From NCBI GenBank assembly GCA_013152275.1, contig JAADGS010000021.1, positions 1 to 58,197 on the forward strand: a stretch of 58,197 bases of DNA, given 5' to 3'. Below the pieces are notes generated by a model, which did no database searches, was not told the DNA's origin, and saw nothing but the letters and a program-made list of their open reading frames with translations. Of the stretch, positions 32,513-56,810 are shown piece after piece. Both the position numbers and the translations under genes were made by a program. Each line of letters begins with the position of its first letter. Within the stretch, counting starts at the first letter, position 1. The stretch is from Actinomycetota bacterium. GTDB lineage: Bacteria > Actinomycetota > Acidimicrobiia > Spongiisociales > UBA4744.

Positions 32513-32597
32513 GAGCCCACCTTATTCGACATCTCGTCGCCTCACGGTACTTGGTGCCCGACGCCATGGAGTTGGTTACCTCGCCGGCGATATGCCG

Positions 32598-32867
32598 TCA
32601 CACCAGGTCGACGACCCTTCCACTGGAAATGTCTACGACGAATTCCCGGCCACTTCTCGAATCTGCGATCCACGAGGCGAGCTGCTCGCCCTCGCGTCGA
32701 ACGACCCACCATGCATACTCTTGACGCGTCTGATGGGAAGCACGGGCGGCACGGGCGGCAAGAACCGCTTCGGCTCCGGTGAGAAACGACCCGATAGCCC
32801 TCTCGACGACCAAGCCCGTCGGCAGACCCGCGACCTCCTCTTCAATGTACTCGATGGCCTCGAACAC
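32598..32867 (-). CDS. Hypothetical 89-aa protein (paralog 1)
   Basis: AGGAG Shine-Dalgarno before GTG; about 60% identical to the neighbouring ORF, which supports coding status. Confidence 0.85.
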   Translation of the reverse strand: MFEAIEYIEEEVAGLPTGLVVERAIGSFLTGAEAVLAARAARASHQTRQEYAWWVVRREGEQLASWIADSRSGREFVVDISSGRVVDLV

Positions 32868-32984
32868 GGCAGTCTCCTGACCGCCCCTACTCCGTACCGC
32901 GTCGGCACGCTACAGCACGATGGCAACGATTCCGTGGATTTCGCCGCCCGCCGGGCACGATCTCATGCCGCCGGACGGCTGCAC

Positions 32985-33254
32985 TCAGGAGAGATCGACG
33001 ATCTGCTCCTTCGAGAGGTCCATCACGAATTCACGACCGCTGCGGGAATCTGCGATCCACAAAGCGACTCGCTCACCCTGGCGCCGAACGATCCACCACG
33101 CGTACTCATGACGATCCGCGTAGGCATCACGCGCCGCCCTGGCGGCGGCGATGGCTTCCTTCTCGGCAGCAAACGTCCCGAGGTGTGTTTCGAGCGATAC
33201 GCCGGTCGGAAGCCCATCGACTTCTTCCTCTACGTATTGAACGGCTTCGTACAC
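32985..33254 (-). CDS. Hypothetical 89-aa protein (paralog 2)
   Basis: GAGGAG Shine-Dalgarno before GTG at 33254; aligns without gaps to paralog 1 (EYAWWxVRR, WIADSRSGREFV). Confidence 0.85.
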   Translation of the reverse strand: MYEAVQYVEEEVDGLPTGVSLETHLGTFAAEKEAIAAARAARDAYADRHEYAWWIVRRQGERVALWIADSRSGREFVMDLSKEQIVDLS

Positions 33255-33469
33255 GACCCTCTCCTCAACCAACACTCACCCTCATCAGGGTACCGTATCT
33301 GAACCGGGATGGCTCAGCTTTCGGGCGGGTTCCGTCATGTTCGCCACGGTCTCGACATGACTCATCGGATCCGCCTCCGCGAAGCGTACGGTCACTCCTC
33401 GTGCCCTTTCCCCGAAGCGACGGCGCAAGACACACGATGACGCCCATGTTTCCGGGATGTCCAAGCACA

Positions 33470-33625
33470 AGAAAACCCCGAGGGAGCTTCTGTCGAAACG
33501 TCCGCCCTCTCGGGGTTTCTGTCCCACTGGAACTCCGTTCCCCGAAAGAAACGGTCTCCCGATGGGAGCCCCAAGATGATCTCTCGACCGCCTCGGGTGC
33601 GCTACGAAGTTACCTCCATTGCGCA
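33470..33625 (-). ncRNA. Putative structured small RNA, copy A (~155 nt, four hairpins)
   Basis: Own promoter; hairpins capped by GUAA, GAGA and UUCG; G-U pairs work only on the minus strand; ends in a stem plus UUUUCU. Confidence 0.75.
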
Positions 33626-33630
33626 ACCCC

Positions 33631-33707
33631 ATTATTACCGCCGTCGGCCATCATCTGCAACCCAGAACCTTCTCCAGATTTCGCGACCACGAATCCGGAT
33701 TTCGCGA
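33631..33707 (-). promoter_or_regulatory. Promoter of RNA A: TCGCGA x2, -35 TTGCAG, -10 TAATAAT
   Basis: Boxes at 33681 and 33702; -35 at 33655-33660; -10 at 33631-33637. Confidence 0.7.
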
Positions 33708-33752
33708 CCGGACCCAGGTACCAGGAACGGCCGCGCAGCGGGCCAGGACGCG

Positions 33753-33908
33753 AGAAAACCCCGAGGGAGCTTCTGTCGAAACGTCGGCCCTCTCGGGGTT
33801 TCTGTCCCACTGGAACTCCGTTCCCCGAAAGAAACGGTCTCCCGATGGGAGCCCCAAGATGATCTCTCGACCTTCTCGGGTGCGCTACGAAGTTACCTCC
33901 ATTGCGCG
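33753..33908 (-). ncRNA. Putative structured small RNA, copy B (~155 nt)
   Basis: Copy of A offset by 283 bp, with 3 substitutions over 33753-33907; the fold is preserved. Confidence 0.75.
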
Positions 33909-33913
33909 ACCCC

Positions 33914-33990
33914 ATTATTACCGCCGTCGGCCACCGAACGCAACCCCGAATCCTGCCCGAATTTCGCGACCACGAACCCGAATTTCGCGA
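33914..33990 (-). promoter_or_regulatory. Promoter of RNA B: TCGCGA x2, -35 TTGCGT, -10 TAATAAT
   Basis: Boxes at 33964 and 33985; -35 at 33938-33943; -10 at 33914-33920. Confidence 0.7.
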
Positions 33991-34085
33991 CCACGACATC
34001 CACGACGCGAGAGAACCCCGAATCCTGCCCGAGCTTCGCGACCACGAACCCGGATTTCGCGACCATGACATCCACGACGCGAGAA
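33942..34085. repeat. 72-bp tandem duplication of the upstream TCGCGA box pair
   Basis: 33942-34013 versus 34014-34085, each starting AACCCCGAATCCTGCCCGA. Confidence 0.9.
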
Positions 34086-34495
34086 AACCCCGAAGGAGCC
34101 TCTGTCGAAACGTCAGCCCTCTCGGGGTTTCCCGTCCCGCCGAACCCGGTGTCGAAACACCGGACCGCCGGGCCCGAAGCCGGAAACCAACTCCGGGTGC
34201 CGCAGTCTGCGGTGTCCCACGAACCCTGAGGCCCGTCGGACCACTCTCGCCTTGGCAGAACCGAAGTCCAACCAAAGTCCGAGCGTCGCCCCACTCCGAG
34301 TCGAAACCCGAAGGAAGCCTCCCTCCGTCACCGGAAGGATCCGCTTCCCGATCTGACCGTGAAACCCGAAGGCTTCACGATACGCCTTCTCTCGAAGGAC
34401 GGCCCCTCTCGGGGCACCGACCGGAAAGTCGGCGGATTCGCCGTCCGGTCGCCCGGCCGGCTCACCCTTACTGCATCGAACGTCTCCAACACAGC
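34082..34495 (-). ncRNA. Putative long structured RNA C (~410 nt, about 12 stem-loops)
   Basis: Chain of hairpins with GNRA/UUCG loops on the minus strand; same 3' terminator module as A and B; own promoter. Confidence 0.75.
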
Positions 34496-34501
34496 AACGG
34501 C

Positions 34502-34577
34502 AACTTACGGAAGCCTCCATCAACATGCAAGCGCGAGGCCTGTCTGGTTTTCGCGATCACGAATCGAGTTTTCGCGA
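34502..34577 (-). promoter_or_regulatory. Promoter of RNA C: TCGCGA x2, -35 TTGCAT, 17 bp, -10 TAAGTT
   Basis: Boxes at 34551 and 34572; -35 at 34525-34530; -10 at 34502-34507. Confidence 0.7.
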
Positions 34578-34591
34578 CTCACGCCACGAAG

Positions 34592-34613
34592 TGTCACCCC
34601 CGGTCGCTATGGT
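34592..34613 (+). promoter_or_regulatory. PafBC/RecA-NDp-type promoter (TGTCAC-N10-TATGGT), leaderless
   Basis: Matches the TGTCR-type hexamer-N10-TANNNT geometry; ATG 7 nt downstream. Confidence 0.65.
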
Positions 34614-34620
34614 CGCAACC

Positions 34621-35391
34621 ATGAGTCTCGAAACCCTCTCCCCAAGCAGGGCCGGCGATTTCAAAACGTGTCCCCAGCTGTTCAAGTTTCGCGCAATCGA
34701 CCGGCTTCCGGAACCGACCACCATCTACCAGGCACGAGGCACGACGACCCACCTCGCCTTGGAACGCCTCTACGACCTCCCTGCACCCGAGCGCACCGCA
34801 GAGCGGCTCTATGAGCTGTTTCGGCAGGCGTGGACCGAGCTGCGCGGCCATGAGGAGTACGCCGAACTGTTCGAGGACGGCGACGCCGAGCGCCGCTGGG
34901 GCATGGAGAGCATGGCCTTGCTCGGCAACTACTTCGCCCTCGAGGATCCGACCCGGATATCACCACTGCACCGGGAACTCAAGATGCTCGAGCAGCTCGA
35001 CGGCATGACCATTCGCGGCATCCTCGATCGAATCGACGAGACCGCCGACGGCGACCTCATCATCCTCGACTACAAGACCGGGAAAGCCCCCCCTGAGCGC
35101 TACGCCATGGAAGCGTTCTTCGCACTGAAGATCTACGCGCTCCTCATCCGCAAGCGAACGGGCCGCACGCCGATCGAGGTTCGTCTCCTCTATCTGAACG
35201 GACCCACCATGTACCGGCTCGATATCGACGATCGGAAACTCGATGCAGCGGAGAGTGCGGTCCGTGCACTGTGGGAGCGCATCGACCAGGCGATCGCCGA
35301 AGAACGGTTCCCGCCGAAGCGGGGACCGTTGTGCGACTGGTGCTCATTCAAGAATCGGTGCCCGGCGTGGGTGCAGCCACCGGAAGCCTGA
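34621..35391 (+). CDS. Stand-alone PD-(D/E)XK (RecB-family) nuclease with a 4-Cys Fe-S motif, similar to the actinobacterial Rv2119 family
   Basis: LSPSRAGDFKTCP...RGILDRID...ILDYKTG...LCDWCSFKNRCP. Confidence 0.88.
   Translation: MSLETLSPSRAGDFKTCPQLFKFRAIDRLPEPTTIYQARGTTTHLALERLYDLPAPERTAERLYELFRQAWTELRGHEEYAELFEDGDAERRWGMESMALLGNYFALEDPTRISPLHRELKMLEQLDGMTIRGILDRIDETADGDLIILDYKTGKAPPERYAMEAFFALKIYALLIRKRTGRTPIEVRLLYLNGPTMYRLDIDDRKLDAAESAVRALWERIDQAIAEERFPPKRGPLCDWCSFKNRCPAWVQPPEA

Positions 35392-56736: not shown

Positions 56737-56810
<74 letters not shown>

Follow-up and report, generated by a model that had tools for sequence, protein, structure and literature searches.

What does the minus strand encode in the intergenic region between a FabI gene and a divergent nuclease gene in this member of the Acidimicrobiia, where the preliminary description saw a large functional RNA built almost entirely of hairpins capped by GNRA or UUCG tetraloops? 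We approached this question in the window, by which we mean the whole stretch of DNA that was analysed (58,197 nt). The window is contig C69 of a genome that totals 3.07 Mb over 100 contigs and is rated 100% complete; the named relatives of this genome are almost all metagenome-assembled genomes of Acidimicrobiia. The neighbouring genes are chromosomal (a GAF histidine kinase, FabI, a PD-(D/E)XK nuclease, glutamate dehydrogenase and two UvrD-type helicase-nucleases), and a phage origin was rejected, as 50,697 phage records gave no match to this chromosomal window. Based on the observed gene anatomy, conservation, structure, absence of a coding signal and distribution, we consider it highly probable that the stretch, here called unit C, belongs to a real family of structured RNA genes.

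The minus strand carries three tandem units, with A and B short and C long, and each unit consists of two TCGCGAAA(A) boxes 21 bp apart, a predicted promoter with 17 to 18 bp between a -35 TTGNNN and the -10 element, a body, and a 48-nt 3' hairpin with a short U-run. The box and promoter layout and the 3' hairpin are common to all three, in line with the earlier claim that promoter and 3' end are shared, and units A and B are 93% identical over 240 nt (repeat D1). The features are as follows, with bit scores from R1, a covariance model of the short units, and fold z values relative to dinucleotide shuffles.

34609..35391, plus strand: divergent PD-(D/E)XK (RecB/Cas4-like) nuclease gene; Pfam PF12705, E 6e-37
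34577-34082, minus strand: unit C including its boxes
34548..34577, minus strand: two TCGCGAAAA boxes of unit C, 21 bp start to start; invariant in 8 sequences
34502..34530, minus strand: predicted promoter of unit C; -35 TTGCAT at 34530-34525, 17-nt spacer, -10 TAAGTT at 34507-34502
34083..34497, minus strand: long RNA of unit C, about 415 nt; fold z -7.33, 17 helices with covariation, non-coding indel pattern
34084..34131, minus strand: conserved 3' hairpin of unit C, 48 nt; direct repeats D4-D7
34086-34082, minus strand: U-run, predicted end of the unit C RNA
34014..34085, minus strand: extra 72-nt copy of the unit B upstream region, boxes at 34034-34062; repeat family D3, 93% identical
33990-33753, minus strand: unit B including its boxes
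33914..33990, minus strand: boxes (33962-33990), -35 TTGCGT (33943-33938) and -10 AATAAT (33919-33914) of unit B
33753..33910, minus strand: short RNA of unit B, about 155 nt; R1 119 bits, fold z -5.64
33707-33470, minus strand: unit A including its boxes
33631..33707, minus strand: boxes (33679-33707), -35 TTGCAG (33660-33655) and -10 AATAAT (33636-33631) of unit A
33470..33627, minus strand: short RNA of unit A; repeat D1, R1 121 bits

The unit C RNA likely starts at G34495, 7 nt after the -10 element, which puts the centres of its boxes near -58 and -79, with the RNA promoter on one side and the nuclease gene on the other. Between the extra 72-nt copy and the next copy, there is no -35/-10 pair. 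A gap of about 950 nt (window 32513-33469) separates FabI from unit A; its ORFs of 63 to 368 aa have no NCBIfam match, and the 368-aa ORF has no Pfam match either.

The minus strand of unit C folds with a minimum free energy (MFE) of -234.5 kcal/mol, compared to -190.5 ± 6 kcal/mol in 100 dinucleotide shuffles (z of -7.33), and none of the 100 shuffles reaches this value. The plus strand of the same stretch gives a z of only -2.39, and the folding signal is therefore strand specific, so that the comparison of both strands against shuffles turned out in favor of the strand proposed at the outset. The 11 stems quoted in the preliminary description are all present in the minus strand (34495-34082). 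In the MFE fold (34497-34083), 9 of the 13 hairpins have the described caps, 5 being UUCG and 4 GNRA, whereas 200 dinucleotide shuffles of unit C hold on average 0.29 such caps (standard deviation, 0.55; maximum, 3). UUCG occurs 12 times in the 415 nt, and the density of CUUCGG is 12 per kb in unit C compared to 0.65 per kb per strand genome-wide, i.e., about 18 times higher. About 77% of the bases are paired in the MFE fold, which leaves little single-stranded seed.

These counts bear on the reading of the stretch as a protein-coding gene, with a 137-aa or a 240-aa ORF as the candidate, or as a chance structure in G+C-rich DNA. Open frames of 80 to 137 codons do occur in all six frames of the region, an openness explained by its G+C content. 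Yet neither the 137-aa ORF (34113-34526, minus strand) nor the 240-aa plus-strand ORF has a Pfam match; the only indel separating this genome from two 90%-identical relatives is 11 nt long; and in the other relatives most indels are frame breaking, with 7/7, 11/13, 11/13, 14/16 and 13/15 of them not multiples of three, which argues that unit C is non-coding. Third positions carry no clear surplus of substitutions. With Pfam, indel pattern and third positions agreeing that the overlapping ORFs, to which the earlier work had pointed, bear no coding signature, and with fold and tetraloop counts far outside those of shuffles, we regard a coding gene or a chance structure as extremely improbable. 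The 11-nt insertion itself (window about 34270-34280, minus strand) is unique to this genome among the aligned relatives; it nearly duplicates the following GGACUUCGGUU, lengthens helix H11, and makes up part of the UUUGGUUGGAC stem.

Selection on the fold can be seen in related genomes. A BLAST search of 61 of these found full-length relatives of unit C in genera g1, g5 and g4 (90% to 62% identical) and weaker ones in genus g3. Alignment A2, which combines unit C with seven relatives from three genera, has an RNAalifold consensus of 116 pairs in 17 helices. Standard pairs fill 97.2% of the paired cells, compared to 94.6% ± 0.4% in shuffles (0/500 as high); 16 pairs have changed on both sides, compared to 9.9 ± 1.7 in shuffles (0/500) and 1 to 6 in slid controls; and the covariation score is 0.227, compared to 0.171 in shuffles and 0.05 to 0.09 in slid controls, where the comparison with the slid controls favors the observed value because the tested structure was derived from the same alignment. 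Helices H9, H13, H15, H16 and H17 contain no pair changed on both sides, so that covariation speaks neither for nor against them; their sequence is nevertheless constrained, and in H9, H13, H15 and the core of the 3' hairpin the sequence itself is invariant, beyond what pairing requires. The large functional RNA of the preliminary description is in this way supported as a conserved, structured, non-coding RNA on the minus strand.

To place unit C among its relatives, we surveyed 81 loci, namely 80 around nuclease orthologues plus the window's own, and defined a unit by motifs of our choosing as a double box and, after it, the 3' hairpin, read on the strand that does not encode the nuclease. 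This yielded 114 units in 66 of the 81 loci, with 1 to 5 units per locus and a bimodal length from box to hairpin: 63 units measure less than 300 nt, mostly about 220 to 240 nt, corresponding to RNAs of ~145 to 160 nt, and 51 units measure 360 to 670 nt, corresponding to RNAs of ~280 to 590 nt. Unit C has all four family features (the double CGCGAAA box, TTGNNN-N17/18-TANNNT, a body and the conserved 3' hairpin). Its full length was compared using nhmmer profiles and model R1. Under R1, the last 149 nt of unit C score 67 bits, almost all from the 3' hairpin, whereas its 5' body scores 5 bits (E 0.24), and the bodies of units A and B thus appear unrelated to that of unit C, as previously claimed; for the same reason, the idea that unit C is an extended short unit found no support. 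Iterated nhmmer searches from unit C reach 11 of the 114 bodies, all in family f1. Other motifs, near fixed positions, are shared by 31 of the 51 long units, and a profile of this commonest other long type, made from 31 sequences chosen by one motif, shows no link to unit C (E 0.99), so homology between C-type and other long bodies is unsupported. The notion of a fixed cassette with a variable body is thereby borne out, with two size classes, several apparently unrelated bodies, and ends that are better conserved than the middle.

In other genera, too, the long units string together hairpins capped by UUCG or GNRA, and one comprises about eight consecutive 22-nt hairpins. By eye, H14 of unit C resembles a conserved hairpin of the 31-unit group, and its 5' hairpins resemble those of A and B. 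In six genomes of genus g3 (G004, G007, G009, G013, G016 and G018), short and long units alternate in tandem arrays (e.g., G016:C20:444027-445884), each genome having 5 to 7 model matches and G009 two arrays on one contig.

The cassette ends hold across these differing bodies. In the eight-sequence alignment of unit C, the boxes, the TTGC of the -35 element and the TA..TT of the -10 element are invariant; across the family, TTGNNN-N16-18-TANNNT lies at an offset of 46 to 48 from box 1 in 98 of the 114 units, compared to 49 of 2,280 shuffled regions, with 78 units having a spacer of 17 and 19 a spacer of 18. A promoter scan with the E. coli consensus called 0 promoters, and a consensus terminator scan flagged, among the 3' hairpins, that of unit A only; since the scanners call few sites, we infer the promoter and terminator roles from conservation and position. 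Within this genome, exact matches to the double box as searched occur at the RNA locus only (six other matches have mismatches), and the 3' hairpin pattern occurs at the RNA locus plus one degenerate match on another contig. The likely role of the two boxes is either to bind a dedicated factor or to serve as phased A-tract upstream elements. In the 3' hairpin, a lower stem of 11 pairs leads through an A-C mismatch to 3 more pairs, which a 5-nt bulge separates from an upper stem of 5 pairs with a GACA cap; after the hairpin comes the short U-run. Among 50 distinct short units, 95.8% of the hairpin's cells are paired and 11 of its 22 pairs have changed on both sides, with 7 core pairs unvarying and flanking pairs covarying. 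We presume that it serves as terminator and stabiliser.

How widely are these RNAs distributed? Model R1 was built from motif-selected units, so its E-values are rough; it matches 133 of 151 genomes of the same order (98 of the 110 of good quality), in 66 of 69 genera and in all 12 families, the lowest share being 9/18 in family f10, while the tally of 2/2 for family f5 consists of two unpublished genomes (G023 and G034). The majority of genomes have one or two matches, with up to 7 in genus g3. In a class-wide sample, matches were found in 34 of 36 genomes of the same order, plus the present one, and in 1 of 114 genomes of other orders (G065). The cassette RNAs therefore seem to form a family nearly confined to one order of Acidimicrobiia. 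The G065 match (locus L126, G065:C77:46000-48500; hairpin at 818-858) scores 50 bits under R1, adjoins that genome's nuclease orthologue and has six CUUCGG on the same strand; this locus may be a distant member of the family.

The proximity of the boxes to the nuclease gene raises the question of whether they act at the level of DNA, the divergent promoter and box array setting nuclease expression in cis with the RNA as a by-product. The boxes do sit in the interval from the RNA promoter to the nuclease start and, among the 72 loci with at least 700 nt upstream of the nuclease, 46 have boxes on the opposite strand within -60 to +400 nt of its conserved N terminus, and 54 have the 3' hairpin within 1.5 kb. 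However, the boxes lie away from the nuclease in the other 26 loci; units A and B are full cassettes without a gene beside them; the nuclease is found in 143 of the 151 genomes sampled across the class, also in orders that lack the RNA; and the compensatory changes point to selection on the RNA fold itself. A mere cis element consequently ranks as very improbable to us. The nuclease does not need the RNA, given its presence in orders without it, and a role of the RNA as a guide for the nuclease is unlikely for the same reason; among ten nuclease loci from other orders, only that of G065 has a similar hairpin. The gene on the far side of the RNA varies (bPH_2/SHOCT, SnoaL, M24 peptidase, AMP-binding enzyme or FabI), and in some other loci a bPH_2/SHOCT protein gene directly follows the long RNA.

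As for the nuclease gene itself, matches to its orthologues begin at residue 31 to 37 in most genomes, which suggests that it probably starts at ATG 34609 or 34621 instead of ATG 34525, and that the RNA promoter does not lie inside the gene. Window positions 34592-34623 (plus strand) read TGTCAC, 16 nt, TATGGT, with ATG 34621 following 7 to 8 nt after TATGGT; the TGTCAC is conserved in eight aligned relatives. This arrangement looks like a promoter of the RecA-independent DNA damage (PafBC) type with a leaderless gene.

Does the family correspond to any known RNA? Comparison with models of known large RNAs, suggested in the preliminary description, returned no Rfam 15 family for unit C. At gathering thresholds, the sole Rfam match in the window is a tRNA gene (56737-56810, plus strand), and a search of all 4,227 families at E ≤ 10 over 33200-34800 gave chance-level matches only (e.g., a guanidine-I riboswitch with 21 of 63 bits). 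6S RNA (RF00013) went undetected across the genome at E ≤ 1, in a setting where a control search finds 6S in 5 of 14 named genomes, and likewise at E ≤ 10 on 33200-34800. It also differs in architecture, 6S RNA being a closed rod with a large central bubble and unit C a chain of mostly local helices, whose 5'/3' closure is one weak 3-pair helix (consensus positions 1 to 3 with 359 to 361). Ms1 RNA likewise gave no match at E ≤ 10 among the 4,227 families; this negative is weak, given that, according to PMC9130861, Rfam detects Ms1 only near mycobacteria. The synteny described for Ms1 in PMC9130861 and PMC6582537 has an HAD-IB hydrolase/phosphoserine phosphatase on one side, an oxidoreductase on the other and 6C RNA nearby, which differs from the present locus, flanked by the PD-(D/E)XK nuclease and, 1 kb away, FabI, with no 6C RNA in the window. 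CoRP, too, gave no sequence or model match, and the locus does not share its position between tRNA genes, the only tRNA gene of the window being 22 kb away. Y RNA was rejected, since the genome encodes no TROVE domain and Rfam gives no match. With the Rfam, synteny, fold and partner-protein tests negative, we assign the cassette to no known family, and in the literature accessible to us on Acidimicrobiia structured RNA, sRNA, 6S RNA, RNA motifs and tetraloops, no description of it was found.

Among large RNAs, unit C resembles OLE, GOLLD, ROOL and the raiA motif in being large, highly structured and conserved, and this raises the possibility that the RNA architecture itself does the work, as a self-assembling scaffold or a catalytic RNA with GNRA loops serving tertiary or intermolecular contacts. 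Such a role would suit the size of unit C, which is similar to that of these RNAs, the 4 GNRA loops of its MFE fold and the sequence invariance of several hairpins. On the other hand, the weak closing helix mentioned above is the only covarying long-range helix or pseudoknot found, and the bodies differ between families of the same order, unlike what a precise fold would require. Together with the missing Rfam match, the lack of body conservation across the order and the compact promoter and terminator cassette of its own set unit C apart from these large RNAs, and we judge a purely architectural role to be rather improbable.

Families of paralogous small RNAs with shared promoter boxes, such as Qrr1-4, OmrA/OmrB, PrrF1/2 and GlmY/GlmZ, offer a second comparison. 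Like them, the cassette genes are tandem or multiple, with upstream boxes in common and 3' ends that resemble one another; it is typical of these families that paralogues share promoter boxes and end in a terminator-like 3' hairpin, and the short form, at about 155 nt, has the usual size of an sRNA. The RNAs could thus be base-pairing regulators in the manner of Qrr, OmrA/B and PrrF, co-regulated through the boxes and acting on mRNAs through an accessible segment. This is at odds, however, with the ~77% pairing of the long RNA, with an order-wide conservation that lies in the 3' hairpin and promoter and not in a single-stranded seed, and with the predicted pairing of the conserved GGAGU...GUGGGA segments of the short RNA; no shared accessible seed stood out in alignments A2 and A4. 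Unlike those families, moreover, the cassettes have unrelated bodies of up to 540 nt, the 415-nt length and the change of bodies between families fit poorly, and Hfq was not found in the genome. We therefore see base pairing with mRNAs as an unlikely mode of action.

A third comparison is with the CsrB/RsmZ sponges, which the cassette RNAs resemble in their many repeated hairpins, variable hairpin number and multiple gene copies, suggesting that the number of binding sites matters. They differ in having UUCG or GNRA loops instead of GGA, in a genome that lacks CsrA (PF02599) as well as Ro (TROVE domain) and Hfq.

Taken together, our working model is that a predicted sigma-A-type promoter, placed behind two CGCGAAA(A) boxes two helical turns apart, would drive independent transcription of unit C as a non-coding RNA, the long form of the family. 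This RNA would be strongly transcribed, abundant, stable and nuclease resistant, given that a closed 3' end and hairpins of the UUCG and GNRA type withstand nucleases, and would act in trans as a binder or decoy of a protein, in proportion to its own amount, and not by base pairing to mRNAs or in cis on its neighbour. Such an amount-dependent, protein-binding RNA would fit the tandem amplification, the turnover of the body with hairpins kept, the ~77% pairing and the fixed-sequence hairpins, and the invariance of H9, H13, H15 and the 3' hairpin core would fit specific recognition. Of the 9 sequencing runs listed for the sequence, none is an RNA run that contains it, and 3 DNA runs contain at least half of its words. 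The argument for a protein partner is entirely one of elimination and analogy, and we hold protein binding tentatively, at slightly below an even chance.

If a protein is bound, RNA polymerase would be the first candidate. PMC11077062 describes Ms1 (about 300 nt) and CoRP (516 nt) as lineage-specific RNAs bound to RNA polymerase whose sequences diverge fast between lineages, and its authors propose that each species has one abundant polymerase-bound RNA, possibly escaping homology searches, and expect that more classes await recognition. Like Ms1 (Mycobacterium and Streptomyces) and CoRP (Corynebacterium), the cassette RNAs come from Actinomycetota and are lineage restricted, structured, intergenic and, in the long form, 300 to 500 nt in size, with no 6S RNA detected alongside; it is this lack of a detectable 6S RNA, together with the precedent in Actinomycetota, that makes us rank polymerase first. 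Against it stand the different synteny, the chain of hairpins, the tandem copies, the two size classes and the unrelated bodies, and we accordingly see polymerase, suggested by analogy, as a doubtful candidate. To our knowledge, neither a division into two size classes nor a set of several unrelated bodies is known from 6S, Ms1 or CoRP. That the cassette RNAs could be a fourth class of abundant polymerase-binding RNAs, filling in this order the place of 6S, Ms1 and CoRP, is similarly speculative and would, if true, imply two co-regulated size classes, tandem gene amplification, a body selected for hairpin number and stability over sequence, and a dedicated factor that sets the RNA level by binding the two boxes.

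Soil, sea water, waste water and vents commonly harbour Acidimicrobiia, whose RNA biology is almost unstudied. A pair of structured RNAs that spans an order, with a promoter and 3' cassette of its own, is a defined target here; it could give the group its first regulatory RNA-protein complex and allows a test of the idea that each bacterium has its own abundant polymerase-bound RNA. The layout, with ends more conserved than the middle, is unusual, and one may ask what it is that reads the 3' hairpin and the promoter boxes.

Within the 3' hairpin, the two strands behave differently. The 5' strand CCCCGAGAGGG (e.g., window 34127-34117, minus strand) is nearly invariant while the 3' strand varies (CUCCCUCGGGG versus CUUUCUCGGGG), and CCCCGAGAGGG alone could fold into a small hairpin with a GAGA cap, which hints at a second possible fold or at recognition by sequence.
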